Of a stretch of DNA of 64,000 nucleotides, positions 4,167 to 45,070 are shown piece after piece (within the stretch, counting starts at the first letter, position 1; the number at the start of each line of letters is the position of its first letter). The position numbers and the translations under genes are program-made. A model generated the notes under the pieces. That model was given only the letters and a program-made list of their open reading frames with translations, made no database searches and was not told the origin of the DNA. The stretch lies in the NCBI GenBank assembly GCA_017495115.1, contig JAFEIJ010000015.1:73481-137480 (forward strand), read 5' to 3'. This DNA is from Chitinophagaceae bacterium. Its GTDB lineage: Bacteria > Bacteroidota > Bacteroidia > Chitinophagales > JADJOU01.

Positions 4167-5135
4167 ATGTTTCGAATTATTCTTCTTATTATATTAAACC
4201 TAACGTTTGTTCTTCTAAATTTATTATTTAAAGATGGTATAAATATAATGCAAATCTATCAAAATGAAACCAATACCTTTGGATCTATTTTAGAACTGCG
4301 ATCTTTATCTATTCTTCTTGCTATTGGAGCGGGTGCGGGTTTATCGCTTGTTGGATTGTTTCTACAAACTATTTTCTCGAATCCTCTAGCTTCGCCATTT
4401 ACACTTGGCATATCTCCTATTGTATCTTTAATTGTGAGTATTTTTTTAATTTTCATTCCAACCTTAGGTTATTTTTCGATTTATTGGTTATATTTAGTTC
4501 AATTTTTAGTTTCGATGATTGCCGCATTAGGTCTACTTTTTTGGATTCAAAAAATCAATAAAAATAATGGTAATGCAACATTTATAATTTTAATTGGTGT
4601 TTTATTGGGTTCATTTTCAGGCGCGATTCAACAAATTATTGAGTTTAACCTAAGCGCCGATTTATTAAAACAAAATGCTTTATGGAATTTAGGGAATTTT
4701 CAAGCTTTTGCGCTTTGGATTCCAATTGCCGTTTTGTTTATCATCATTATTTGTTCCATATTTTTAAAAAAAATGACATATCAAGCCAATATTTTTTTAC
4801 TAGGAATACAATATGCTCGAAATTTAGGATTGGATACAAATCAATTTATAAAAATTATTATTTTTATTTCTTCAATAATTACTTCTGTTATTACAATTAC
4901 ATGCGGACCTATTGGATTTATTGGACTAATGGCACCTCATATATCTAAAATTTGGCTCAAATCTAATAATCATAAAGTTGTTTTTCTGCCTACTTTATTA
5001 ATTGGAATTTTCTTTTGCCTTTTTGCTTTATGGACAAGTCAACTTGAATTTTGGAATGGCTCTTTATCAATAAATATTGTTTTGAGCATTATTGGCGTGC
5101 CATTCACACTTTTTTTACTTTTAAAAAGAAATTAA
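4167..5135 (+). CDS. FecCD/BtuC-family ABC transporter permease (iron-chelate/cobalamin type)
   Basis: The 322-aa protein is polytopic, with the FecCD-like segments GAGLSLVGLFLQTIFSNPLASPFTLGIS and GPIGFIGLMAPHI. Confidence 0.7.
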   Translation: MFRIILLIILNLTFVLLNLLFKDGINIMQIYQNETNTFGSILELRSLSILLAIGAGAGLSLVGLFLQTIFSNPLASPFTLGISPIVSLIVSIFLIFIPTLGYFSIYWLYLVQFLVSMIAALGLLFWIQKINKNNGNATFIILIGVLLGSFSGAIQQIIEFNLSADLLKQNALWNLGNFQAFALWIPIAVLFIIIICSIFLKKMTYQANIFLLGIQYARNLGLDTNQFIKIIIFISSIITSVITITCGPIGFIGLMAPHISKIWLKSNNHKVVFLPTLLIGIFFCLFALWTSQLEFWNGSLSINIVLSIIGVPFTLFLLLKRN

Positions 5136-6711: not shown

Positions 6712-7321
6712 TGTTTTTTTTATTTAAAAAATGAAGAAATAAATACATTGAAAAAGTCGCCCAAAATACACCAATCAAACTACCAACCAAAACATCTTCT
6801 TTAAAATGAGCCAAAAGATATATCCGAGCCACACCTACCAATATTGCGGATAGTATAAGGATTAACATATACCTCTTTTTAGGATTTAAAAATAAAGCAA
6901 TTGTAGTTAAAATAAAAAATGCCGTTGTCGTATGGCCCGAAGGAAAACTTTGATGATATAATAAAGGAATATTCTCGGGCATTTGAAAATCATAATTTTT
7001 GAAATACGATAATGGACGAGGGAAGTTAAAATATTTTTTGAGCAATCTGACAGTTAACATTTGACCTAAAAATCCTATTAAAAAAAAACACAATTGAAAT
7101 CTATGTTTTAAAAGAAGATAAACTCCTATAATCATAACTAAAAACCATTCGCCTAAGATATTAAATACTTTAAACAAAACATCAAAAAAGGGAGTTTGTA
7201 GCTTATTTAATAAAATAACTTCATCGCCTTTATTTATATAAAACATACTGATTGAAGCTAAAATAACAAATAATAAATAAACCAAAAAGTAAAATTTGAT
7301 TGCATTAAAATTCTTGATCAT
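6698..7321 (-). CDS. PAP2-family phosphatase (membrane)
   Basis: All three PAP2 motifs are present: KKYFNFPRP (K-x6-RP), FPSGHTT (PSGH) and ARIYLLAHFKED (R-x5-H-x3-D). Confidence 0.85.
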   Translation of the reverse strand: MIKNFNAIKFYFLVYLLFVILASISMFYINKGDEVILLNKLQTPFFDVLFKVFNILGEWFLVMIIGVYLLLKHRFQLCFFLIGFLGQMLTVRLLKKYFNFPRPLSYFKNYDFQMPENIPLLYHQSFPSGHTTTAFFILTTIALFLNPKKRYMLILILSAILVGVARIYLLAHFKEDVLVGSLIGVFWATFSMYLFLHFLNKKNNVTT

Positions 7322-25500: not shown

Positions 25501-28356
25501 AACAGTCACGGGAGCAATTTAGATGATATTTTTATAGGAAAATTGAATAATTGGCAATATCCTTATTGGCTTAATGCCGACATCGATGATATTCGAATCT
25601 ACAATCGCGTGCTTTCCGCTTTAGAAGTTAAAGGCTATTGTGGTTCTTGTAACATTTCAAGTCCTATTGAAAAGGCTTGTTCAAAAGGATTTAAACAAAC
25701 AATCCCAAAATGTACTCAAGAAACATTGATATTAAACAGTTCGAATGGAACAAAACACCTTTGGTCTCCAAAATTAGGTCTTTCAAACGATACCAATCAA
25801 AATCCAATCTGTTCTATAAATCAAAATACGACGTATTATTCAACCAAAATCGATAGTGTGGGCTGTCAAATTGTAGATACATTTATCATTCAAATACGTG
25901 CCGTTTCAAAATTTGAGCCTATTTCTGATACACTGATTTGTATCGGTGATAGCGCTACCATTAATATTAAAAACCGAACGAATCCCATCTGGTCTCCAAA
26001 CACCCATATCCGAGCATTTGGAACAAATGATTTTAAACTCTTTCCTAATCAATCGACGGATTATATATTAAATTATCAGGATACGTTTGGTTGCTCATTT
26101 AAAGATACAATTTCTATAAAAACCAAAATTTGTTGTTCTTTGCGTGCGCAATTTGAAATGAGTAAAACGAATTTATGTTTTGGAGATTCTTTAATGGTCA
26201 ATAATAGCTCTTCATCCATTTCAGGCGTTTCTTTTAGTTGGTCTATCCAACCCAATTCGGTTTCTATGGCAAACTATAACGGTATTCAACCGCCTACCTT
26301 ATTTTTTGAAAATGCGGGAGATTATACCATCGAACTTATTGGCGATAATGGATCTTGTAAAGATACCTTTGTAAAAACAATCTTAGTTACTAAACTCAAT
26401 CCTAATGCGGGAAATGATACCTTCTATTGTGGCAATGCATTGCAATATCAACTTGGAGAAAGTCCAATTAGAGGATTTAAATATTCATGGAATCCTCCAA
26501 CGGGATTAAATAATCCATCCCAATCCAACCCCATATTGTCGCTTGCAAATCAAAAAATAGATTACATTTTACAAATGGAAGATACGTTAAGTGGTTGTCG
26601 TTTTTACGACACGGTCACAGTAAGCGCTTTTAATTTTAAAAATTTCTCAAAAATTATCGATACGCTGATATGTGATCGCGATAGTATAATGGTTTTGCTT
26701 CCAAGTTTCACCAAATCAGCCACATGGAAAAATGCAATACATATTTCGGATTCGTTATCAAAACAACCTTTACTTTTCCCTAAAGATACACAAAGGTATA
26801 TTGTTCATTTTGAAGACTCCAATCGTTGTCAATATCAAGATACTTTTGATCTCTTTACTAAAATTTGTTGTGAACATATCCCCCATTTTTTAGTTGCTAA
26901 AAACACGATTTGTTTTGGAGAAACACTACAAATTACTGAAAATTCCACCTATAAAACGCCCGTTAATCACAAATGGAAGGTTATACCAAATACGGTATCT
27001 CCTAGTTTTTCATCTGGAAAAACACCGCCAAACTTCCAATTTTTAGATTCAGGAAAATATCAAATTTGGCTCACTATTTATGATTCTTATTGTATAGATT
27101 CCTTTTTACGCGAAGTTAAGGTAGTTCGTATTTATCCAAATGCAGGATTGGATCAATCTTCATGTCGATTACAAAATAATTTTTCATTAGGTTTCCCTCC
27201 AGTAGATGGCTATCAATATGTATGGACACCAAGTCTTTATTTATCCAATCCTTTTATTTCCAATCCAACGGCGTCAGTTTTCCGAGACTCTATTAGATAT
27301 ATTCTTGAAACAAGAGATATTGCTAGTCAATGTGTCTTTAATTATGCGGTAGATATTAAAACGAAAAGAGTAATTGACTCTTCCATTACTTTCGATACCC
27401 TTTGTGAGAAATCAACACTTGATTTTCATGGCAATATACTCAATGCTTCAGGATTCTATGACACCATACTTTCGGATGTATTAAATACCTGTGATAGTAT
27501 ATATAAAGCAACTCATTTATTCATTTATCCAAGAAAAGATTCGTTGTGGACGCAACAATATGGTTGCAAATACTTCCAATATAAAAATACCGTTTTTGAA
27601 AAAGATACGTTTTTATTAGACTCAATTTTTAATTCCAAAGGTTGTTTGGTTTCTATTTTACAAATTCCAATAGAAATTTTAAATACAACTATAGAAGATT
27701 CAACAATTATTGCATGTGGAAGTTATCTTCATAATGGACTTTTATTAACCGAAAGTTATAAACGAATTAAAACGAATCGTGTTCCTTTTTTCAGAAGACC
27801 TACTTGTGATAGTGTTTGGCGAAATATTGGACTTAACATATTACCCGCTCCTAAAGCAATCATAGAACCCAACAATAAAAACAATCCAATTCCTTACGGA
27901 ACCAAATTGAATTTGGAGGGTAAGGGCGGTGATTTTTATCAATGGAATTTTGAGAACAGTACCGAAAAAAGTATTGTATATGAGGCGTTTCAAGACTACA
28001 GATTTACGTTAGTAGTGAGTCTTCAAAATGAATGTAAAGACACTGCAACATACTTTGTAAAAGTGGGCGAGATTCCTGATGGTAAAATCGTATTTCCAAA
28101 TGCATTTTCGCCTAATGGCGATCAAGTAAATGATTACTTTAAACCCAATTCCTATCAATTTGGGGCACTGGTTTCATTAAGCATTTTCAATCGTTGGGGC
28201 GAGAAAATATTTGAAAATTTCAATCAAGATGCGTATTGGGATGGAACATACAAAAATGAAATTCAACCGAGTGGAGTTTATATTTATATCGCTACATTTA
28301 AATCGCCTAAAGGGGAGTTAAAAACGATAAAAGGAGACTTTTTATTGGTTAGATAA
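22537..28356 (+). CDS. 1939-aa secreted multidomain subtilisin-like (S8) protease/adhesin with a T9SS type-B C-terminal sorting domain
   Basis: It has a signal peptide and an intact S8 triad context (ITDDG, DHGTHVAG, SGTSMAAP). PKD-like modules, a TWNNQP-containing beta-sandwich and a LamG/ConA-like domain follow. Cys-rich repeated modules come next, and the C-terminus is PNAFSPNGDQVNDYF...FNRWGEKIF...WDGTY...GVYIY. Confidence 0.9.
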   Translation: MKHKLLFLILFFTNCIYSQFDNLKNNSNELEAKYIKNQLFVKIKDEIDFNPINSIEPREFSNKIKITKAFKLIELQKIYLVEVLDSSITTDSVIRFFTKNEAVEYVERVPLYELFWTPNDPMYLQQWNLQKIQADLAWNISQGKQQIRVAITDDGFLMNHEDLTSKWFINSAENPTNGIDDDNNGYIDDWRGWDAADNDNNPAAFNPSNNYFDHGTHVAGITTVATNNAKGIAGIGGNILLIPVKIGANSNASFTGAYQGVEYAIIANANVINMSWGGGAFSQTYQNLFNVAKSKNIVCVAAAGNSSTSSWMYPASYQNVISVASTTNTDALSWFSNFGSAIDVCAPGSDILSCHATGITNYTNMSGTSMAAPLVSGLCGLMLSHNLMPADSIEACLKRTSNNINANNPNRIGQIGAGRINAFQALQCVTKNPISSFDILDTFQCSGQLVRYQATSNGAQPLTYQWIFPGGSPSTSTFANPGVIYSSAGLKSATLITCNTLGCDTITKTNIVRIDTPSAWLTGRKYTTYNSNPAVIAVNFKGNPPYNVTLTDGTNTWTENNITANPYFFSIVPQLNTSLISIQSFSAKNCIGKVSKQDTIEKNDLNAVTMRDTCIFLNNFPMVVEDAGISSFTPNTNYALHPEYGALSWTCGGSPCQGRSLMKFNLNEIPQNAIINDATLYLTAENPSNGYSNQPTFGTNNASAIKRITQSWSENTVTWNNQPTTTTLNQVTLPQSSSSKQNYVVNMTQLINDSRANPNNSHGFMLQHLAEPTWYNCMLFASTDFVDISKRPKLKICYSYPIQNNNDNNCDTTNLNVGRVLHLDFNGNTQDKSGNNNHATNFGATPVAGKNGVANTAYRFDGINDYMKVNHHTSLNMTNITLTAVLKPNGFYNGTCYGNQIIKKGNTDFVSGEYGLVYSPNGYTNSCFVFDTIHQNYAGYVFNNRPSPNLNNTSPYVIKGQWDCLVYTKNNDSTKFYINGVLKYATASNSHGSNLDDIFIGKLNNWQYPYWLNADIDDIRIYNRVLSALEVKGYCGSCNISSPIEKACSKGFKQTIPKCTQETLILNSSNGTKHLWSPKLGLSNDTNQNPICSINQNTTYYSTKIDSVGCQIVDTFIIQIRAVSKFEPISDTLICIGDSATINIKNRTNPIWSPNTHIRAFGTNDFKLFPNQSTDYILNYQDTFGCSFKDTISIKTKICCSLRAQFEMSKTNLCFGDSLMVNNSSSSISGVSFSWSIQPNSVSMANYNGIQPPTLFFENAGDYTIELIGDNGSCKDTFVKTILVTKLNPNAGNDTFYCGNALQYQLGESPIRGFKYSWNPPTGLNNPSQSNPILSLANQKIDYILQMEDTLSGCRFYDTVTVSAFNFKNFSKIIDTLICDRDSIMVLLPSFTKSATWKNAIHISDSLSKQPLLFPKDTQRYIVHFEDSNRCQYQDTFDLFTKICCEHIPHFLVAKNTICFGETLQITENSTYKTPVNHKWKVIPNTVSPSFSSGKTPPNFQFLDSGKYQIWLTIYDSYCIDSFLREVKVVRIYPNAGLDQSSCRLQNNFSLGFPPVDGYQYVWTPSLYLSNPFISNPTASVFRDSIRYILETRDIASQCVFNYAVDIKTKRVIDSSITFDTLCEKSTLDFHGNILNASGFYDTILSDVLNTCDSIYKATHLFIYPRKDSLWTQQYGCKYFQYKNTVFEKDTFLLDSIFNSKGCLVSILQIPIEILNTTIEDSTIIACGSYLHNGLLLTESYKRIKTNRVPFFRRPTCDSVWRNIGLNILPAPKAIIEPNNKNNPIPYGTKLNLEGKGGDFYQWNFENSTEKSIVYEAFQDYRFTLVVSLQNECKDTATYFVKVGEIPDGKIVFPNAFSPNGDQVNDYFKPNSYQFGALVSLSIFNRWGEKIFENFNQDAYWDGTYKNEIQPSGVYIYIATFKSPKGELKTIKGDFLLVR
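22894..23820 (+). other. peptidase S8 (subtilisin) catalytic domain of the giant protein
   Basis: This covers aa ~120-428, with Asp in ITDDG, His in DHGTHVAG, Asn in AAAGNSS and Ser in GTSMAAP. There is an Asp/Asn-rich insert, NGIDDDNNGYIDDW. Confidence 0.85.
23830..24081 (+). other. PKD-like domain
   Basis: This covers aa ~432-515: F..C.G..V.Y...SNG..PLTYQW.FPGGSP..S....P.V.Y...G......L...N..GCD. Confidence 0.6.
24979..25632 (+). other. LamG / concanavalin-A-like lectin domain
   Basis: This covers aa ~815-1032: LHLDFNGNTQDKSGNNNHATNFGATPVAGKNGVANTAYRFDG...KFYINGVL...DDIRIYNRVLSALEV. Confidence 0.7.
25669..27366 (+). repeat. about 2.3 tandem copies of a ~245-aa Cys-containing module inside the giant ORF (protein-level repeat)
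   Basis: The motif string recurs: ...W.P...L.N....NP...Y......D..GC...DT..I.TKICC then F.....N.CFG..L.......W.......G..PP...F...G.Y.I.L......C.D.F...... then PNAG.D. Anchors are TKICC at aa 1196-1200 and 1441-1445, and PNAG at aa 1288 and 1533. Confidence 0.6.
28084..28353 (+). other. T9SS type-B (gliding-motility-associated, CHU_C-like) C-terminal sorting domain
   Basis: The last ~90 aa read IVFPNAFSPNGDQVNDYFKP...SIFNRWGEKIFE...WDGTYKNEIQPSGVYIYIATF...GDFLLVR. Confidence 0.8.
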
Positions 28357-28420
28357 TCACAAATGTTATAAAATTATGAGCATATTATCAAAAAGATTGG
28401 GTCTCATTGTTTCTAATTTT

Positions 28421-28482
28421 GAGACCACGGATAAATTTTTCAAAGTGAACTAGCTATTCAGGAAAAATTTTCCGAGGTGACG
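28421..28482 (+). repeat. hairpin module A1
   Basis: GAGACCA CGGATAAATTTTTC [loop AAAGTGAACTAGCTATTCA] GGAAAAATTTTCCG AGGTGACG. The stem is 13 bp with one bulged T. Confidence 0.85.
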
Positions 28483-28566
28483 ACATATGTGAATTCCAAC
28501 TCTTCGTACCCGTTCCCGAATTCCCGAATCGTGCCTCTCTGGACAGTCGCAGGATCTCGGGATAGG

Positions 28567-28643
28567 CGTCATCCTCGAAAATTTTCAGCAACAATATTTT
28601 TATTAATATACTAAATCTTTTTTGAAAATTTATCGGGGATCTC
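28567..28643 (-). repeat. hairpin module D1 (A-type design in reverse orientation)
   Basis: CGTCATCCTCGAAAATTTTCA ...loop... TGAAAATTTATCGGGGATCTC. Compare the reverse complement of A: CGTCACCTCGGAAAATTTTTCC...GAAAAATTTATCCGTGGTCTC. Confidence 0.8.
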
Positions 28644-28660
28644 ATTGTTTCGCTTCAGAG

Positions 28661-28718
28661 ATTCCGCATATTTTTTTTATAAGCTGACTAGATAGTCAAA
28701 AAAAATTGCGGAATGACG
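28661..28718 (+). repeat. hairpin module B1
   Basis: ATTCCGCATATTTTTTTT [loop ATAAGCTGACTAGATAGTC] AAAAAAAATTGCGGAAT GACG. Confidence 0.85.
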
Positions 28719-28791
28719 AAGTGGTTATAAGCAATCCTTTCAAATCACTAATAACTAAAACCTAAAGTCTAATCCCTTTTAAAAGCTTTTT

Positions 28792-28853
28792 GAGACCACG
28801 GATAAATTTTTCAAAGTGGACTAGCTATTCAGGAAAAATTTTCCGAGGTGACG
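28792..28853 (+). repeat. hairpin module A2
   Basis: Same as A1 with one loop change (AAAGTGGACTAGC). Confidence 0.85.
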
Positions 28854-28906
28854 GGAGTCCCGAGATGAAGGATTCGGGAACGTAATATATGTGAATTCCA
28901 ATATCA

Positions 28907-28981
28907 CGTCATCCTCGAAAATTTTCAGCAACTAAATGTTTTTTCTCTTGAAATTATAATTGAAAATTTATCGGGGATCTC
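28907..28981 (-). repeat. hairpin module D2
   Basis: CGTCATCCTCGAAAATTTTCAGCAAC...TTGAAAATTTATCGGGGATCTC. It ends 10 nt from the GIY-YIG stop codon. Confidence 0.8.
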
Positions 28982-28991
28982 TTTAGAAAAT

Positions 28992-29291
28992 TTATAAATC
29001 TACAACTTGATTTATTAAATCAATCCAATCTTTGTTATATTTTTCTACAAGTTGCATCTTCCATTCACGTTTCCATTTTTTAAGTTGTTTCTCTCTTGAA
29101 ATAGCTTCTTCGATACTTATAAATGATTCAAAATAAACTAATTTATTACAATTATATTTTGAAGTAAATGAAGTAGGATATATTTTATCTTTATGTTCCA
29201 TAACTCTAAAATATAGTTGACTTGTAACTCCAATATAAAAAACGGAATTTAATTTATTTGTCATTATATAAACATAGCCCCCACGCTCCAT
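28992..29291 (-). CDS. stand-alone GIY-YIG (URI-domain) nuclease family protein, COG2827/YhbQ-like
   Basis: The 99-aa protein reads MERGGYVYIMTN...VFYIGVTSQLYFRVMEHK...SFTSKYNCNKLVYFE...EEAISREKQLKKW. This gives the GIY and YIG motifs, a conserved Arg and a conserved Glu. Confidence 0.9.
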   Translation of the reverse strand: MERGGYVYIMTNKLNSVFYIGVTSQLYFRVMEHKDKIYPTSFTSKYNCNKLVYFESFISIEEAISREKQLKKWKREWKMQLVEKYNKDWIDLINQVVDL

Positions 29292-29295
29292 TGTA

Positions 29296-29303
29296 CAAAT
29301 ATA
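29296..29303 (-). promoter_or_regulatory. candidate -7 box (TATATTTG) only 4 nt upstream of the GIY-YIG ATG
   Basis: The reverse complement of 29296-29303 is TATATTTG. If functional, it implies a leaderless or near-leaderless mRNA. Confidence 0.3.
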
Positions 29304-29313
29304 CTAATTATAT

Positions 29314-29375
29314 GAGACCACGGATAAATTTTTCAAAGTGAACTAACTATTCAGGAAAAATTTTCCGAGGCGACG
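29314..29375 (+). repeat. hairpin module A3
   Basis: GAGACCACGGATAAATTTTTCAAAGTGAACTAACTATTCAGGAAAAATTTTCCGAGGCGACG. It starts 22 nt from the GIY-YIG start codon. Confidence 0.85.
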
Positions 29376-29399
29376 GGAGATGGTGTCAGCACTTTAGAG

Positions 29400-29455
29400 A
29401 TTCCGCATATTTTTTTGTAAGCGTACTAGATTGTCAAAAAAAATGCGGAATGACG
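29400..29455 (+). repeat. hairpin module B (unit 3)
   Basis: ATTCCGCATATTTTTTT [GTAAGCGTACTAGATTGTC] AAAAAAAATGCGGAAT GACG. Confidence 0.85.
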
Positions 29456-29542
29456 AGGTGGTTATAACCAAGCCCTTCAAATCACTAATCACAAGTCACT
29501 AATCACTAAAACCTAAAGCCTAATCCCTTTTAAAAGCTTTTT

Positions 29543-29604
29543 GAGACCACGGATAAATTTTTCAAAGTGAACTAACTATTCAAGAAAAATTTTCCGAGGT
29601 GACG
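29543..29604 (+). repeat. hairpin module A4
   Basis: Same design as A1. The loop ends ...CTATTCAA. Confidence 0.85.
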
Positions 29605-29628
29605 GGAGATGGTGTCAGCACTTTAGAG

Positions 29629-29681
29629 ATTCCGCATATTTTTTAATAAGCAGACTAAATGGTCAAAAAAAATTGCGGAAT
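29629..29681 (+). repeat. hairpin module B (unit 4)
   Basis: ATTCCGCATATTTTTT [AATAAGCAGACTAAATGGTC] AAAAAAAATTGCGGAAT. Confidence 0.85.
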
Positions 29682-29798
29682 GCTTTAAGTCCCGAGACGA
29701 AGGATTCGGGAACGCAACGATTATGAATCCCTTCAAATCACTAATCACAGGTCACTAATCACTAAAACCTAAAGCCTAATCCCTTTTAAAAGCTTTTT

Positions 29799-29860
29799 GA
29801 GACCACGGATAAATTTTTCAAAGTGAACTAACTATTCAAGAAAAATTTTCCGAGGTGACG
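29799..29860 (+). repeat. hairpin module A5
   Basis: Identical to A4. Confidence 0.85.
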
Positions 29861-29884
29861 GGAGATGGTGTCAGCACTTTAGAG

Positions 29885-29937
29885 ATTCCGCATATTTTTT
29901 AATAAGCAGACTAAATGGTCAAAAAAAATTGCGGAAT
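29885..29937 (+). repeat. hairpin module B (unit 5)
   Basis: Identical to the unit-4 copy. Confidence 0.85.
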
Positions 29938-30054
29938 GCTTTAAGTCCCGAGACGAAGGATTCGGGAACGCAACGATTATGAATCCCTTCAAATCACTAA
30001 TCACAGATCACTAATCACTAAAACCCAATCCCTAATCCCTTTTAAAAGTTTTTT

Positions 30055-30113
30055 GAGACCACGGATAAATTTTTCAAAGTGCACTAACTAATCAAGAAAA
30101 ATTTTCCGAGGTG
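30055..30113 (+). repeat. hairpin module A6 (terminal, slightly diverged)
   Basis: GAGACCACGGATAAATTTTTCAAAGTGCACTAACTAATCAAGAAAAATTTTCCGAGGTGA. Confidence 0.8.
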
Positions 30114-30175
30114 AAGAGGCGTCTTAAAATATTCATTACCTTAAAAAAAATGTCCTATTTTGATCGATTTAGTTC

Positions 30176-30183
30176 TATATTTG
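30176..30183 (+). promoter_or_regulatory. candidate -7 box (TAnnTTTG)
   Basis: TATATTTG lies 21 nt upstream of the ATG at 30205. The extended context TATATTTGCTTT matches the one upstream of the protease gene at 22500. Confidence 0.4.
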
Positions 30184-30204
30184 CTTTTAATAAATTGCTA
30201 AAAC

Positions 30205-32601
30205 ATGAATTTAAATCAACTTAAAGGGCTTTTACCTTATTTTGGAATACTTATTATTTTCTCATGCTTTATTTTTTTTCCTGAAATACAAGGGAAAAAA
30301 CTAGGAAGTCACGACTCAGTGAGTTGGTATGGAGCAGGAAAAGAATTATTAGATTATCAAGGAAAAGGAGAAAATATCAAGTGGACAAATCGTGTTTTCT
30401 CAGGAATGCCCTTGTACACTATAGGTGGAGAATTTAATGGCAACCCATTTTTTAAATACTATTATAAAATCACACAAATACTTCCATTAAATATTACATT
30501 GATGTTTTTATTAACTGTTACGATTTTCTTTTCTTTTCTTTTAATAAATATAGATAAAAGAATTTCTTTGATATCTGCTTTAGTTTTAGGAGTTAATACA
30601 TGGATTATAGATTCTTTAGTAGCTTCTCACGGAACTAAAATTTTAGCTTTAGTTTTTTTATTTCCTATTATCAGTGGATTAATAGCCTTTTATAAAAAAA
30701 ACAAATTAAATGGATTGGTAGGCATTGGAATCGGACTACTTTGTCAAATAGGAATCAATCACCTTCAAATCACATATTATGGTGCTATAGTATGCGGAAT
30801 TATAGGTATATACCTTTTTTATGATGCAATCAAAACCAAACAAATAATAACATTTTTAAAAAAATCAATTTTAGTAATTGTTGTTGTTGCTCTAGCTATT
30901 TTAGCCAATTATTCTTATTTATGGATTCTAAAAGATTACAGCAAAGATACCATGCGCGGTGGTAAAACCGAATTGATCAAACCTGAAGCGAATAGTACTG
31001 GAAAGGAAGGCGGTTTAGACATCAATTATGCATTTAGTTGGAGTTATACACCAACCGAATTATTTAATTTTATTGTCGCAGATGCAAAAGGCGGCGCAAG
31101 TGGCTACAAAGTGAATCCATCAAAATCCAAATTAGCTCAAGCGATAGGACAAGATAAAATACCTATGTATTGGGGCGAACAACCTTTTACGGGTGCTCCT
31201 AATTATATAGGCGTTGTATTAATTTTCTTAGCTATTTTCACCTTATTTTATTGGAAAAATAATTTACGTTGGCCGTTTTTAATTCTTATTGGTTTATTTT
31301 CTGCAATGGGACTCGGTCGTTTCTTCCTTGAATGGAATCAAATTTTGTTTGATTATTTGCCATTTTATAATAAATTTAGAACACCTACGATGTCTTTCTC
31401 TATTGTGAGTATGAGTTTTATATTTCTTTCAGGTTTGGGCTTAAATCACCTAATTTCAAATAAGGAAAATACAAAAGATGTTTTAATCGCATTAAAATAT
31501 TCGTTATACACCATTATGGGTTTTATGATTTTAGGTTTTATAACCATACAAAATGAAGGTTTCACCTCCTCTTCAGACACACAAGTCTTTGGTCAAAACG
31601 TTCAAGCGCTTCAATTGATTATCGAAGACCGAGCCAGTTTCTTTAAAAGTGATTTTATAAGAAGTTTATTTTTGATTGCATTAGCTGCAGGTCTGATTTG
31701 GGGATATATTACTCAAAAAATAAGCCAACGAATTTTTATTATTATATTGGGCGTTGTAATGGTTGGTGAACTCTTTTTAGTAAGCAATCGTTTTTATGAT
31801 CGGGAAGCCTTTACAAAAACCCAAAAAGTTGAAGATTTAGTTCCGAATGAACCATATAATCAATATATGATGGGCGATACCACCCATTTTAGAATGGTCA
31901 ATACCACCACCAATGTATTTAATGACAATACCGATGGATACAGATATAGCAATGTGGGAGGCTATTCACCTGCCAAGCTCTATAGATATCAAGATTTAAT
32001 TGACGTGCATTTGAGCAAGATGAATATCAATGTACTTAATATGCTCAATACGAAATATTTTGTAGTGGACCAAGGTGGTCAAAAGGTCGTGCAGCAGAAT
32101 CCAGACGCTTGTGGTAATGTATGGTTTCCTACCCAAGTTAAATTTGCTAAAAATGCCAATGAAGAAATGGATTCTATTGGAACTTCCAATCCTAAAGAAA
32201 AAGTATGGGTCGATCAACGATATCAAAGTGAATCTAAATTTGATGCCAATACCGATCCCAATGCAACCATATATTTATCTAAATACCATCCCGAAAAAAT
32301 GGAATACCAATCTCAAAGTACTTCGGGAGGTTTTGCTACATTCAGCGAAATATGGTATCGTGGCAATGAAGATTGGAAAATTTTCATCGATGGAAAGGAA
32401 AGTAAAATGATACGCACCAATTATGTTTTGAGAGGTACCTATATTCCTGCAGGGAATCACAAAATAGAAATGCGATTTGAGCAACCTAAACTTGATTTAT
32501 TAATCAAAGTTGGACAAGTTGCAACCTTGATATTATTATTGCTTGTCTTTATACTTCCATTTGCTCAAAAGCGATTGATTAAAGTTAAACATGAACAATA
32601 A
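30205..32601 (+). CDS. YfhO-family polytopic membrane protein (GT-C-type glycosyltransferase candidate)
   Basis: The 798-aa protein has about 12 N-terminal TM helices, a soluble C-terminal domain and a final TM helix. The N-terminal region (GKKLGSHDSVSWYGAGKELLDYQGKGENIKWTNRVFSGMPLY) has the pattern of Bacteroidota YfhO homologues. Confidence 0.6.
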   Translation: MNLNQLKGLLPYFGILIIFSCFIFFPEIQGKKLGSHDSVSWYGAGKELLDYQGKGENIKWTNRVFSGMPLYTIGGEFNGNPFFKYYYKITQILPLNITLMFLLTVTIFFSFLLINIDKRISLISALVLGVNTWIIDSLVASHGTKILALVFLFPIISGLIAFYKKNKLNGLVGIGIGLLCQIGINHLQITYYGAIVCGIIGIYLFYDAIKTKQIITFLKKSILVIVVVALAILANYSYLWILKDYSKDTMRGGKTELIKPEANSTGKEGGLDINYAFSWSYTPTELFNFIVADAKGGASGYKVNPSKSKLAQAIGQDKIPMYWGEQPFTGAPNYIGVVLIFLAIFTLFYWKNNLRWPFLILIGLFSAMGLGRFFLEWNQILFDYLPFYNKFRTPTMSFSIVSMSFIFLSGLGLNHLISNKENTKDVLIALKYSLYTIMGFMILGFITIQNEGFTSSSDTQVFGQNVQALQLIIEDRASFFKSDFIRSLFLIALAAGLIWGYITQKISQRIFIIILGVVMVGELFLVSNRFYDREAFTKTQKVEDLVPNEPYNQYMMGDTTHFRMVNTTTNVFNDNTDGYRYSNVGGYSPAKLYRYQDLIDVHLSKMNINVLNMLNTKYFVVDQGGQKVVQQNPDACGNVWFPTQVKFAKNANEEMDSIGTSNPKEKVWVDQRYQSESKFDANTDPNATIYLSKYHPEKMEYQSQSTSGGFATFSEIWYRGNEDWKIFIDGKESKMIRTNYVLRGTYIPAGNHKIEMRFEQPKLDLLIKVGQVATLILLLLVFILPFAQKRLIKVKHEQ

Positions 32602-42401: not shown

Positions 42402-43426
42402 ATAAATTTAGATTTTGGTTTTGCTACTAAAATAATATAACTACTCATAAAATTACCTAAATAGCCCACTTTAGAAATAACAAAATTAAGACACTTAGAA
42501 CTAAAACACGCTAATCGAAATGAATAATCCTCATCCCAAATCCCTGGCTTGATATCAACATCATAATCTTTAGCTAAACGTTTATGCGTTTGATAAGGCA
42601 ATAAATTTTCACCCCAAACACCATATTCATTACAAATATTGGTATAATTACTTGGGAATTGAGTTTTAATTTTATTTTTTAAATAATCTTCCATGGCTTC
42701 GTCCAATTTAGGGCCACCAGCAGTAGCTATATTCCCAATTGCTTTATCTATATCATTTGAATCTTTTAGATTATATTTTTTCGTTAAAAATTCTTTTTTA
42801 GCTTCAATGATTTTACTTCGATTCTTTAAATGTATATACACGTGCTGCATATGCGCGAAAGGATTATTCCAATTTGCAGTAGTACTACTTACAATAATTG
42901 CATTTGGATAATTAGTCGAAATGTCGTGATAATAGTTTTCTAAATCATAAATATGCTCAATGACATTTCTACTCATCACTATATCCAGTTCATAACCTTT
43001 TTCGCGCATTTGTTTGAAAGTAATATCTGAATCTCCAACGATATAATCATCCATTTTGACACCGAAAATAGTATCTATTTCCATTGCCATTTGAGCAAAT
43101 TTCGCATCGTAATCATTATAAAACACTTGCTTACAACCTATCATTTTGGCCAAAACATATAAAGAACCAACACCCGCTCCATAATCTATTAAAGATACTT
43201 CATAATAGGGCTTACCAGATATTTTTATGGCATCATATAGCAATTTTGCACTGGTTTTAAGCGAAAAAAATGGTCGCTCGGTATGACATTTTTTAAAATA
43301 CCATTTATAAAATGGATCAATATCCAATGCTTCTACATCCGTATTTGCTATTAAATGAAAAATTTCATTGCATTTTTCATTTATAATTTTTGATAATTCA
43401 TCTTTAATTTTAATAAATTCCTTCAT
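42398..43426 (-). CDS. class I SAM-dependent methyltransferase
   Basis: LIDYGAGVGSLYVLAKMIG (motif I), FYNDYD and DIVMSRNVIEHIYD. Confidence 0.6.
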   Translation of the reverse strand: MKEFIKIKDELSKIINEKCNEIFHLIANTDVEALDIDPFYKWYFKKCHTERPFFSLKTSAKLLYDAIKISGKPYYEVSLIDYGAGVGSLYVLAKMIGCKQVFYNDYDAKFAQMAMEIDTIFGVKMDDYIVGDSDITFKQMREKGYELDIVMSRNVIEHIYDLENYYHDISTNYPNAIIVSSTTANWNNPFAHMQHVYIHLKNRSKIIEAKKEFLTKKYNLKDSNDIDKAIGNIATAGGPKLDEAMEDYLKNKIKTQFPSNYTNICNEYGVWGENLLPYQTHKRLAKDYDVDIKPGIWDEDYSFRLACFSSKCLNFVISKVGYLGNFMSSYIILVAKPKSKFI

Positions 43427-43496
43427 CCTCTACCCTTTTCTAATTAAACTAACTACCTCGATGGCTTTTTTGCTTTCGGCGATGCGAGAACCATTA
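43427..43496 (-). pseudogene. orphan 22-codon 3'-terminal fragment of a Gfo/Idh/MocA oxidoreductase gene (left copy of the 81-bp direct repeat)
   Basis: The reverse strand reads AAT GGT TCT CGC ATC GCC GAA AGC AAA AAA GCC ATC GAG GTA GTT AGT TTA ATT AGA AAA GGG TAG, which is NGSRIAESKKAIEVVSLIRKG*. The intact gene end at 44174-44240 reads NGFRIAESKKAIEVVSLIRKG*. Confidence 0.85.
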
Positions 43497-43575
43497 TTTT
43501 TAAAAACATATTGATATCTATTTGACTTCATTTTCTCACTTTTCTACTTAGCAAATTTATTAAATTTAATCTATT

Positions 43576-43881
43576 CTATACGAATTCATTTTTATACTCC
43601 CCTATTGGTATACTTATTTCAAAACATAACTCAGGGGAAATGTCATAATTCCATATACTCCCATTTGGATATTCTATGAGACCTTCCCAAAACAATTCTC
43701 CCATTTCTCCAATCTGCACTTTTTTAAATAAATCTATATCTAATAATTTCTTAAGTGATTCAAATTGAATTAAATCTTTTTGAATAATTGGTAAAAAGTC
43801 CAAAACTTTTTGGTCTAAATTATTGAACACCAATTTCAATTTATAATCTTCAAAATAAGATACTTGAATCACTTTTTTCAT
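43576..43881 (-). CDS. DUF2442-family small protein
   Basis: This 101-aa protein sits immediately downstream of a DUF4160 gene, which is the usual pairing. The pattern V..V....DYKL.L.F.N......DF is consistent with the family. Confidence 0.6.
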   Translation of the reverse strand: MKKVIQVSYFEDYKLKLVFNNLDQKVLDFLPIIQKDLIQFESLKKLLDIDLFKKVQIGEMGELFWEGLIEYPNGSIWNYDISPELCFEISIPIGEYKNEFV

Positions 43882-43885
43882 TATT

Positions 43886-44134
43886 TTAAGTTAAAGGAGT
43901 TATTTTACTAAAATTTTTGGTATCCCACATTTTTAATAGTTCATTTTTGTGGATTTCAGCCCAAGCTTGAACTAATTTATGTTTACTAATTGGAAGGTCT
44001 CCATTCAAAATTTGACCATTTTCAATTAAGATATTTGCTTCAAATTCACCATATTTTACTTTAAAATGAGGAGGATTATGATCATTAAAGAACATATAAA
44101 CAATAATTCCATAAAATCTGCTTATCTCTGGCAT
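43886..44134 (-). CDS. DUF4160-family small protein
   Basis: MPEISRFYGIIVYMFFNDHNPPHFKVKYGEFEA matches the hallmark N-terminus of DUF4160 (ISRFYGI...NDH.PPHFH..YGE). Confidence 0.8.
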   Translation of the reverse strand: MPEISRFYGIIVYMFFNDHNPPHFKVKYGEFEANILIENGQILNGDLPISKHKLVQAWAEIHKNELLKMWDTKNFSKITPLT

Positions 44135-44173
44135 TATTTTTTTATTTTAAACTAATTTTAATTCCTTCATCCT

Positions 44174-45070
44174 CTACCCTTTTCTAATTAAACTAACCAC
44201 TTCAATCGCTTTTTTGCTTTCGGCGATGCGGAAACCATTACCAGCTAAAATTTCTTTATAACTATCGGTATGTAATTCCGTAAATCCATCCGAAAACTCA
44301 ATTTCTTCGCCTTCCATTTGGAGTGTGCGATACGTTCTTTTTCCTGCATCGCGCACCGCTTGAGGTATGCGCATATAATCGATACTCAACAACCATTCTA
44401 CTCGAGCTCTTTGAAGATGTAATCTGCCGGAAGCCGTTTCATCTGATTGTTCAATAACTTTATTCTCAACAATATCACCAAAAATCCATGTCAGCATATC
44501 AAAAAAATGGACTCCGATGTTCGTAGCAATGCCACCCGATTTTTTAGCATCCCCTTTCCAACTATGATGATACCATTTGCCTCGTGAGGTCATATATTGA
44601 AGCTTGATATCAAACACATGATCGGCAGGTGCGTTTGCTACGCGCTCTTTTAGCGCTATAATACTCGGATGTAATCGCAATTGAAGAATTGTGTAGGCAT
44701 TTTTACCCGTTTCTTTTTCCATTTCTACTAAAGCGTCTACATTCCATGGATTTAAAACGAGTGGTTTTTCGCAAATCACATCACAACCGCTGCGAAGCCC
44801 AAAACGAATATGCGCATCGTGCAAATAATTAGGACTACAAATACTAATGATATCAATAGGATTTCCTTCGCGTTTTAACTTATCGATATGTCGATCAAAT
44901 CGCTCAAATTCGGTAAAAAAATCGGCATCCGGAAAATAACTATCCATAATTCCCACGCCATCATAAGGATCATACGCACACACCAATTCATGCCCTAAAT
45001 CTTTAATGGCTTTCATATGTCTTGGAGCGATATAACCCGCTGCACCAATTAACGCAAATCGTTTTTTCAT
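44174..45070 (-). CDS. Gfo/Idh/MocA-family NAD(P)-dependent oxidoreductase (sugar-nucleotide dehydrogenase type)
   Basis: FALIGAAGYIAPRHMKAI Rossmann start, then ICSPNYLH..H.......G..V.CEKP. Confidence 0.85.
   Translation of the reverse strand: MKKRFALIGAAGYIAPRHMKAIKDLGHELVCAYDPYDGVGIMDSYFPDADFFTEFERFDRHIDKLKREGNPIDIISICSPNYLHDAHIRFGLRSGCDVICEKPLVLNPWNVDALVEMEKETGKNAYTILQLRLHPSIIALKERVANAPADHVFDIKLQYMTSRGKWYHHSWKGDAKKSGGIATNIGVHFFDMLTWIFGDIVENKVIEQSDETASGRLHLQRARVEWLLSIDYMRIPQAVRDAGKRTYRTLQMEGEEIEFSDGFTELHTDSYKEILAGNGFRIAESKKAIEVVSLIRKG

Follow-up and report, generated by a model that had tools for sequence, protein, structure and literature searches.

A mosaic array of long-stemmed, SRM-type hairpins and its probable partner, a GIY-YIG nuclease gene of the Ssn family, in a Chitinophagaceae genome

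A hairpin array in one intergenic spacer

Here, we examine a 64,000-nt stretch of contig JAFEIJ010000015.1 (assembly GCA_017495115.1) from a Chitinophagaceae bacterium, hereafter called the window, and within it a 1.7-kb stretch that is confirmed to be a real, non-random cluster of hairpin DNA repeats and that encloses a gene for a small GIY-YIG protein assigned below to the Ssn family of single-stranded DNA (ssDNA) nucleases. The host genome is that of a low-GC (31%) member of the Chitinophagales. The array occupies the spacer between the stop codon of a protease gene (28356) and the start of a 798-aa open reading frame (ORF) at 30205, both co-directional, and its first hairpin begins 65 nt past the protease stop codon. 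The upstream neighbor is a 1939-aa subtilase that carries CHU_C, a signal domain of type IX secretion (Pfam); the downstream ORF (30205–32601) has many hydrophobic segments and matches no Pfam family at E <= 1e-5, which leaves unverified the YfhO label that an earlier note on this DNA, made from its letters alone, had attached to it. As that note had stated, the only credible ORF inside the array is the 99-aa GIY-YIG gene, hereafter ssn (28992–29291, minus strand).

The array comprises 12 large hairpins (six of module A, four of B, and two of D), three short GC-rich hairpins (C) with an inverted relative (C'), and low-complexity linkers (E), which follow one another as A-C'-D-B-E, A-C-D-[gene], A-B-E, A-B-C-E, A-B-C-E, and a last A. 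Pattern, repeat, and Tandem Repeats Finder (TRF) searches place all modules where the earlier note had put them, far above chance: a 47-nt gapped pattern for A has six exact matches in the window, when none is expected from shuffled sequences. The note was likewise right about the order of the units, about the single extrahelical base of the large hairpins, about D being the A design in opposite orientation, and about the GACG tag of B, a TGACG that follows only two of the four B copies (B1 and B2, which it placed at 28661 and 29400).

The note had also proposed that the large hairpins share one architecture, and this is borne out by their common layout and by their covarying stems. Read on the strand that carries CGTCA (for A and B, the complement of the strand used in the note), this layout runs CGTCA, a 6-nt GC clamp, A, an A/T stem, a loop, an A/T stem, T, a bulged A, T, the partner of the clamp, and TCTC, for a total of 57–77 nt; the stem is lengthened by 8–10 A/T base pairs, and the hairpin has a single bulged A and a loop of 20–45 nt. 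The clamp differs by class, both of its sides changing in concert (5'/3'): CCTCGG/CCGTGG in A, TTCCGC/GCGGAA in B, and TCCTCG/CGGGGA in D, to which related loci add TCCCCG/CGGGGA (a second D class), TTCCCG/CGGGAA (F), TCCCTG/CAGGGA (G), and TCCCGC/GCGGGA (H). In an alignment of 21 hairpins from the window and related loci, six of them from the window, 93.5% of the cells hold standard pairs and two-sided changes occur at 10 of 17 pairs; the observed covariation was reached by none of 500 shuffles, and the signal was lost when partner columns were slid. In this alignment, T3 and C4 never vary, nor do the TAT around the bulged A and the TCT in the 3' tail, and conservation is 90% or more at C1 and G2. 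The C directly 3' of the palindrome is likewise invariant there and can be read in 12 of 12 window copies, and GTC precedes the palindrome in nine of the 12 (the exceptions being A6 with TTC, and B3 and B4 with AGC). When folded as ssDNA, the large hairpins are stable on either strand (z −2.9 to −6.3 against dinucleotide shuffles) with about equal energy on both, the sole hint of a preferred strand being the recurrent T.G wobble that the D-type clamp shows when read on the CGTCA strand; taken alone, the C hairpins are weak in the same test (z about −1.6). Overall, these observations support the view that the large hairpins belong to a single family of shared architecture.

A covariance model built from the alignment (R1) finds 12 matches in the window, all of them in the array, and neither it nor the pattern searches recovered any further copy of the A, B, C, E, or large-hairpin modules elsewhere in the 64 kb; in particular, R1 has no match in the second-largest of the gaps that separate ORFs of 120 aa or more (43426–44174, about 750 bp). 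All A and B modules carry their motif on the minus strand. Module A lies at 28421–28482 (A1, CGTCACCTCGG...CCGTGGTCTC on that strand; 76.5 bits, fold −10.7 kcal/mol, z −4.3), 28792–28853 (A2, 76.4 bits), 29314–29375 (A3, 71.7 bits), 29543–29604 (A4, 76.8 bits), 29799–29860 (A5, 76.8 bits), and 30055–30116 (A6, 69.1 bits, with a degenerate 5' flank, CTTCA). Module B lies at 28658–28718 (B1, CGTCATTCCGC...GCGGAATCTC; 66.2 bits, z −5.9), 29397–29455 (B2, 62.3 bits), 29626–29682 (B3), and 29882–29938 (B4); the CGTCA flank is lost in B3, which reads AAGCA and scores 50.4 bits over model positions 4–64 only, and is missing from B4 (50.4 bits) as well. The two D hairpins stand on the plus strand at 28567–28643 (D1, CGTCATCCTCGA...ATCGGGGATCTC, with the T.G wobble in its clamp on this strand; 68.3 bits, z −4.3) and 28907–28981 (D2, 68.8 bits).

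The short C hairpins, also on the plus strand, lie at 28857–28882 (C1, a 6-bp stem TCCCGA/TCGGGA with a 10-nt loop, found by its pattern with one mismatch), 29689–29714 (C2), and 29945–29970 (C3), the last two being exact pattern matches; C1 resembles the Ssn-related motifs introduced below but lacks their canonical flanks. Their inverted relative C' is a rearranged, GC-rich hairpin region (28511–28560, plus strand; I4–I6) whose part at 28521–28544 is 83% complementary to the C copies. The E linkers (28737–28791, 29470–29542, 29728–29798, and 29984–30054) have a 7-nt periodicity according to TRF, which in the second one, (AATCACT)n followed by CTAAAAC/CTAAAGC/CTAATCC, reports periods of 7 and 14; the first, which precedes A2, falls within a direct-repeat family whose copies are 99% identical. 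The linker units AATCACT, CTAAAAC, CTAAAGC, and CTAATCC read (G/T)NNTTAG on the other strand, and the linkers are always found next to either an A hairpin, on its TCTC side, or the border of an array. From 29473 to 30114, TRF detects a recent 256-bp tandem duplication of the A-B-C-E unit in 2.5 copies (97% matches, score 1228), to which the 99% identity within the direct-repeat family also testifies, so that this part of the array is an ordinary duplication.

A probable Ssn-family gene bracketed by inverted hairpins

Ssn proteins are single-domain GIY-YIG proteins of about 94 aa (CDD cd10448) that act as site-specific nucleases (Chenal et al. 2025, Nat Commun 16:2388, PMC11893778). As shown for four homologues, they bind and cut only ssDNA, and only its CGTCA...TC strand; they are inactive on RNA, and their cleavage site lies a few nucleotides upstream of a hairpin repeat found beside the gene that encodes them (PMC11893778). 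In Neisseria, this repeat is the NTS (CGTCATTCCCGCGMAVGCGGGAATCYRG), and its generalized form, the Ssn-related motif (SRM), has been written as HGTCWYN(0-2)YYVSBRHN(0-5)WNVSBRGN(0-2)RNCYNB (PMC11893778).

The product of the window gene matches the Pfam GIY-YIG family over residues 5–79 (E 1.1e-15) and has no second domain in its 99 aa. It is 48% identical over 86 residues (E 1e-28) to a 94-aa ORF of N. gonorrhoeae, in whose chromosome it has exactly one tblastn match; this comparison was possible in PLSDB, which includes two N. gonorrhoeae chromosomes filed as plasmids. A canonical NTS begins 2 nt after the stop codon of the gonococcal ORF and more NTS lie upstream, so that, from its length, flanks, and uniqueness, this ORF is presumably ssnA. 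Seven residues (Y8, Y19, G21, R29, H33, E67, and N86) do not vary among 27 members of the family, and the window protein keeps all of them. A search of PDB sequences returned only marginal matches to UPF0213 proteins (1ZG2 and 1YWL, E 0.12–0.75), and a search of NCBIfam only a sub-threshold match to the group I intron endonuclease family TIGR01453 (E 0.004). Judged by its sequence, the 99-aa protein is probably a member of the Ssn family, and its own enzymatic activity is predicted by homology. In the PLSDB record of one of the gonococcal chromosomes (NZ_CP119140.1, 2.17 Mb), only 12 features are annotated and the ssnA-like ORF is not among them.

The gene is bracketed by the hairpins A3 and D2, which are inverted relative to each other, and forms with them an insertion sequence (IS)-like cassette of about 470 bp, SRM(A)-promoter-ssn-SRM(D) (28907–29375, minus strand). 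A3, the left end, has its SRM on the coding strand and lies 22 nt before the ssn ATG, and D2, the right end, lies 10 nt past the stop codon on the strand opposite to the gene. Between A3 and the ATG, a putative promoter region (29296–29336, minus strand) combines a sigma-70-type TTGAAA-18-TATAAT (11/12 match, minus strand 29336–29307, partly within A3) with a TAT.TTTGT box, which is invariant in five cassettes and presumably corresponds to the Bacteroidetes TAnnTTTG box. The A-gene-D arrangement, including the position of D2, recurs at four other loci (L006, L007, L018, and L100). The closest homologues of the window protein (P0002, P0003, and P0020, 79–82% identity) are encoded at loci of the same build, that is, an A hairpin with CGTCA on the coding strand, about 22 nt with TAT.TTTGT, the ORF, about 10 nt, and a D-type hairpin on the other strand. 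The genomic contexts of these loci are different ones, in which the neighbor is a HipA toxin pair, an ORF without relation to the others, or the gene of an FG-GAP/ASPIC protein. When five such units from four contexts are aligned, homology stops at the outer CGTC on one side and at the outer GACG on the other. Across five loci, the GIY-YIG gene is the only gene that is repeatedly bracketed by hairpins. A more distant homologue (P0007, 69% identity) is encoded between holA and a nucleotidyl-transferase gene, with two further clamp variants upstream.

Two side observations concern these homologous genes. At the locus of P0007 type L008 (2942–3006), and likewise at L013 and L016, the ATGACG tail of an H-type hairpin supplies the ssn start codon, and the hairpin-to-gene orientation of L008 is opposite to that of the window cassette. 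At L018 (2944–3243), the ssn copy sits in a 2.1-kb array of 15 hairpins and carries a 1-nt insertion (GGAGTTTACC vs. GGAGTTACC) that shifts the reading frame after 24 codons; P0020, the 80-aa product called there, begins downstream of the break, and this copy is either a pseudogene or the victim of a sequencing error.

With regard to the hairpins themselves, the NTS is laid out as CGTCATTCCCGCG-MAV-GCGGGAATCYRG and the window hairpins as CGTCA-clamp...clamp'-TCTC. The two systems have in common a single-domain GIY-YIG protein of about 95–100 aa, a directional CGTCA 5' flank, a clamp of TTCCGC/GCGGAA type, the C after the palindrome, repeats on both sides of the gene in an IS-like layout, and the clustering of repeats in intergenic DNA beside genes for surface or membrane proteins. 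The clamp of B1 is the nearest of all to the NTS, and its left half fits the corresponding half of the published SRM pattern. The two systems differ in that a window hairpin measures 57–77 nt rather than about 28, that the place of the 3–5-nt loop is taken by an A/T extension of the stem, a loop of 20–45 nt, and a bulged A that is invariant, that several clamp classes occur together (A, B, and D here, F, G, and H in relatives), and that the host is a low-GC Chitinophagales rather than Neisseria, with an activity that is predicted by analogy. The long form nevertheless fits a published result, since its A/T stem and large loop fill a position that is dispensable in vitro: there, the identity of the loop does not matter, and extensions, including those that lengthen the stem, keep cleavage (Chenal et al. 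2025).

The full SRM pattern has no match in the window, even with its middle gap widened to 20–70, because of the long insert and of one position before the 3' clamp. Taken by halves, the left half-pattern finds seven sites in the 64 kb, six of them within hairpins of the array, and the right half-pattern fits D2 alone among the long hairpins. We also surveyed homologues, through 80 diverse metagenomic loci that encode an Ssn homologue and the N. gonorrhoeae locus, with a clamp scanner whose strict version gave two copies and which was relaxed to a 7-nt clamp with one mismatch (about 0.7 false matches per 64 kb in shuffles). SRM-type hairpins were found at 61 of these 81 loci, mostly with 3–5-nt loops, and the clamp classes differ between Ssn clades. 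A minority of loci have intermediate extensions, such as L076 and L070, in both of which the D clamp CATCCTCGA/TCGGGGATC recurs with its T.G wobble and with a bulged A. Bacteroidota homologues at 67–70% identity lie within arrays of canonical short SRMs (GTCATTCCTGCGAAGGCAGGAATCT) spaced by about 145 bp. Within this sample, the A/T-extended form thus looks lineage-restricted. Another locus (L105, 990–2275 of a 304-kb contig) has a regular array of canonical short SRMs, about 145 bp apart, on both sides of its ssn homologue, entirely on the strand of the gene, and small unannotated ORFs of 80–104 aa are called across its SRMs.

Dispersal of the modules and competing explanations

The hairpin modules are not confined to the window: the 21-nt 5' arm of A alone identifies five loci in two metagenome-assembled genomes (MAGs) of Chitinophagales from Lake Mendota (JBIPPB and JBIPPG), loci that also contain B, C, and D modules, and related loci totaling about 60 kb yield over 50 copies with R1, the scores of which are only marginal beyond the window's own lineage. 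Among these loci, L004 is the orthologous spacer between the protease and membrane-protein genes; its modules come in another order, it has no GIY-YIG gene, and it retains a decayed ortholog of A6 beside the membrane-protein gene (6770–6828, 40.8 bits). Since this orthologous spacer differs in the arrangement of its modules, the modules must turn over and recombine. Our results hence support the view that they are dispersed, recombining elements present at several loci of related Chitinophagales genomes. The earlier note had preferred mobile or recombining elements to simple duplication: this holds for the dispersed and reshuffled modules of the MAG loci and L004, but not for 29473–30114, where the tandem duplication is a plain one. 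Linkers of E type are also seen in L004 (about 7830–7770 and 6900–6830) and L018 (about 4600–4680).

On this basis, we consider it highly probable that the region is a mosaic cluster of SRM (NTS-like) hairpins together with the gene of their partner, a GIY-YIG nuclease of the Ssn family. The locus is a long-stemmed, lineage-specific example of the known Ssn/SRM system and not a new kind of element, which leaves the category of the system unchanged. Two statements of the earlier note give way here: the repeats, which it could not place in a named family, are Ssn-related motifs, and the GIY-YIG gene, which it had treated as a bystander, appears as the partner of the hairpins by its homology to Ssn and its bracketing. 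The note had also envisaged that the modules might be the ends of a described IS or miniature inverted-repeat transposable element (MITE) family with a known transposase; the enzyme is indeed of a known kind, but it is an ssDNA nuclease and not a proven transposase.

Several points weigh against this assignment. The published SRM pattern finds none of these hairpins, so that their membership in the motif family is argued from the flanks and the clamp only. The gonococcal ORF owes the name ssnA to its length, flanks, and uniqueness, and the Ssn function of the window protein and of the long-form hairpins is itself an analogy read from sequence. The hairpin just after the gene lies on the opposite strand, contrary to the orientation found in Neisseria, and the 64-kb window holds only one hairpin cluster. 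Finally, activity in Neisseria depends on the sequence of the palindrome, since altering it with the structure kept abolished activity (PMC11893778); a single enzyme may thus not act equally well on all three clamps (A, B, and D).

Other explanations of the array need to be considered as well. Its anatomy is that of the repetitive extragenic palindromes (REPs) of Proteobacteria, their bacterial interspersed mosaic elements (BIMEs), and their REP-associated tyrosine transposases (RAYTs), with short extragenic hairpins that have a conserved single-stranded head, mosaic clusters in both orientations with linker motifs, and an enzyme gene between inverted hairpins; moreover, the conserved extrahelical base resembles those of BIMEs and of the ends of IS608. 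The hairpins could hence be REP/BIME-type or IS200/IS605-derived palindromes moved by a Y1 (HUH) transposase encoded elsewhere, with the GIY-YIG gene as a passenger. We regard this as very improbable, given that the flanks are CGTCA/TCTC as in SRMs and not a GTAG-type REP head, that the GIY-YIG gene is the only one repeatedly bracketed, in four contexts, and that no other gene lies inside the arrays of the window, L004, and L018. Membership in REP/RAYT as such was rejected on the head sequence and on the enzyme family, a GIY-YIG nuclease not being an HUH/Y1 transposase. No Y1/HUH transposase was found in the array or bracketed by hairpins in the five loci, nor was any transposase seen in the loci examined. 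We know of no strand-transfer activity in Ssn, which further sets it apart from RAYTs. As in IS200/IS605 elements, the ends of the window cassette would be imperfect ssDNA hairpins with an extrahelical base, recognized and cut a short distance 5' of their foot, but the end hairpins of IS608 are on the same strand, when those of the cassette are inverted, and the cassette has neither a TnpA nor a TnpB gene and no target tetranucleotide that we could identify. A parallel with REP/IS200-type elements was drawn by Chenal et al. themselves (PMC11893778). Resemblances to two further kinds of repeats are partial: the small size, the noncoding nature, the multiple copies, and the terminal inverted repeats recall MITEs, from which the modules differ by ends that give a direction (CGTCA vs. 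TCTC), by an associated gene that encodes no DDE transposase, and by the lack of evident target-site duplications, the window copies abutting other modules; and the core ATTCC(C)...GGGAAT of the Neisseria dRS3 is common with module B (ATTCCGC...GCGGAAT), but dRS3 is a 20-bp palindrome whereas the core halves are 32–56 nt apart in the window.

That the hairpins act as RNA (terminators, attenuators, processing sites, or small RNAs) for the protease and membrane-protein genes is very unlikely too. Their position between two co-directional genes, shortly after the protease stop codon, their stability on either strand, and their covarying stems would suit such a role; however, there is no U-tract, both orientations occur, no Rfam family matches, the same modules stand in unrelated gene contexts, and the conserved single-stranded flanks and strand-specific motifs fit a DNA-binding enzyme that is inactive on RNA. 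Terminator-like sites are moreover absent from 28300–30260, when 1.4 would be expected. An intrinsic terminator was rejected on the same interval, which has no site combining a GC stem, a short loop, and a T-run. In Rfam, a scan of the window at gathering scores returned two tRNAs only, and a permissive scan of the array gave a best E of about 3. The mobility of GIY-YIG homing endonucleases, the arrays that lack the gene (L001–L005), and the weak, below-cut-off match to TIGR01453 could instead suggest that a free-standing homing endonuclease gene inserted by chance into an unrelated repeat array. This appears scarcely credible for a 99-aa protein without any DNA-binding domain that is a full-length homologue of an NTS-flanked Neisseria protein and whose Bacteroidota and Proteobacteria homologues are flanked by CGTCA...TC hairpins in any context. 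The least plausible explanation in our eyes is a locus-specific segmental duplication of no wider significance: the 256-bp unit and the confinement of all copies to one place in the window speak for it, but at least five other loci in two related MAGs, as well as several metagenome contigs, also carry the modules, and the orthologous spacer differs in module content. A duplication specific to this locus, which the earlier note had named as one way in which its proposal could fail, is refuted by the matches of the A arm and by the R1 copies in other loci.

Possible activity, mobility, and turnover

If the Ssn/SRM assignment is correct, Ssn would bind the hairpin in ssDNA and cut a few nucleotides 5' of CGTCA. 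By homology and motif conservation, the window enzyme is predicted to recognize the hairpin by its GTC flank, by the GC clamp that forms its foot, and by the C that follows the palindrome. In this regard, mutagenesis in Neisseria showed this C to be most critical for binding and the three bases that precede the palindrome to be most critical for cleavage (PMC11893778). The A/T stem extension and the large loop would then fill the position that is dispensable and extendable in published experiments, and the enzyme may act on hairpins of types A and D, which flank its own gene, and possibly on those of type B. The importance of the palindrome sequence for the Neisseria enzyme, together with the coexistence of several clamp classes, would imply either a relaxed specificity or several enzymes. 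As for the biological role, it could be selfish spread, or the control of incoming or replicating ssDNA.

The local traits that stand out are the long A/T-extended hairpins with their bulged A, the BIME-like mosaic of several clamps, and the sharply bounded cassette found in four contexts. The Ssn family is the only known class of site-specific nucleases exclusive to ssDNA. The locus would supply a natural Ssn/hairpin pair from Bacteroidota, and would suggest that an extended-stem, large-loop geometry, so far only engineered in vitro, is used in nature. It also implies that motifs of this kind are under-counted in AT-rich genomes when the published pattern is used to search for them, and the recurrent, sharp-edged cassette provides a test case for the unproven mobility of SRM-ssn-SRM units.

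A bolder proposal is that SRM(A)-ssn-SRM(D) is an autonomous mobile element driven by its GIY-YIG ssDNA nuclease, the free hairpins being its nonautonomous derivatives, the clamp classes co-evolving specificities, and the A/T stems an aid to extrusion. We put it forward tentatively and think it rather unlikely as a whole, although the cassette of about 470 bp with exact ends in four contexts, the clamp classes that differ between Ssn clades, and the chimeric hairpins described below are compatible with a mobile unit. If it were true, it would offer a parallel to RAYT/REP in which the enzyme is of another catalytic family; the array, with its three or more coexisting clamp classes, would be the record of several enzyme/hairpin specificities evolving together, and the A/T-extended stems would be an adaptation for hairpin extrusion in a genome of 31% GC.

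Beyond any such mobility, the array would grow by tandem duplication and be reshuffled by recombination between modules. Recombination between modules is argued from two features, namely, the loss of the head of B3 and B4 at their junction with C, and two chimeric hairpins in L002 (1485–1546 and 1653–1714) that, on the SRM strand, join an A-type 5' half to a B-type 3' half. This composition suggests that different module classes have recombined inside their A/T stems or loops. In these chimeras, the B-type arm GAGATTCCGCATATTTTT is joined to the A-type arm GAAAAATTTTCCGAGGTGACG, so that the clamps are unable to pair, and R1 scores them at 34.5 bits.

Lastly, short elements were seen at the edges of arrays. 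A search of the window for those of the form GTCATTTCGA...GAGAAATCT returned none. Those of related genomes, which read GTCATTTCGAGC(N)GCGAGAAATCTAG, resemble a class of short SRMs whose stem is imperfect; they lie at about 5600–5570, 5505–5475, and 5195–5170 in L001, and at about 4483–4510 and 4584–4612 in L018.

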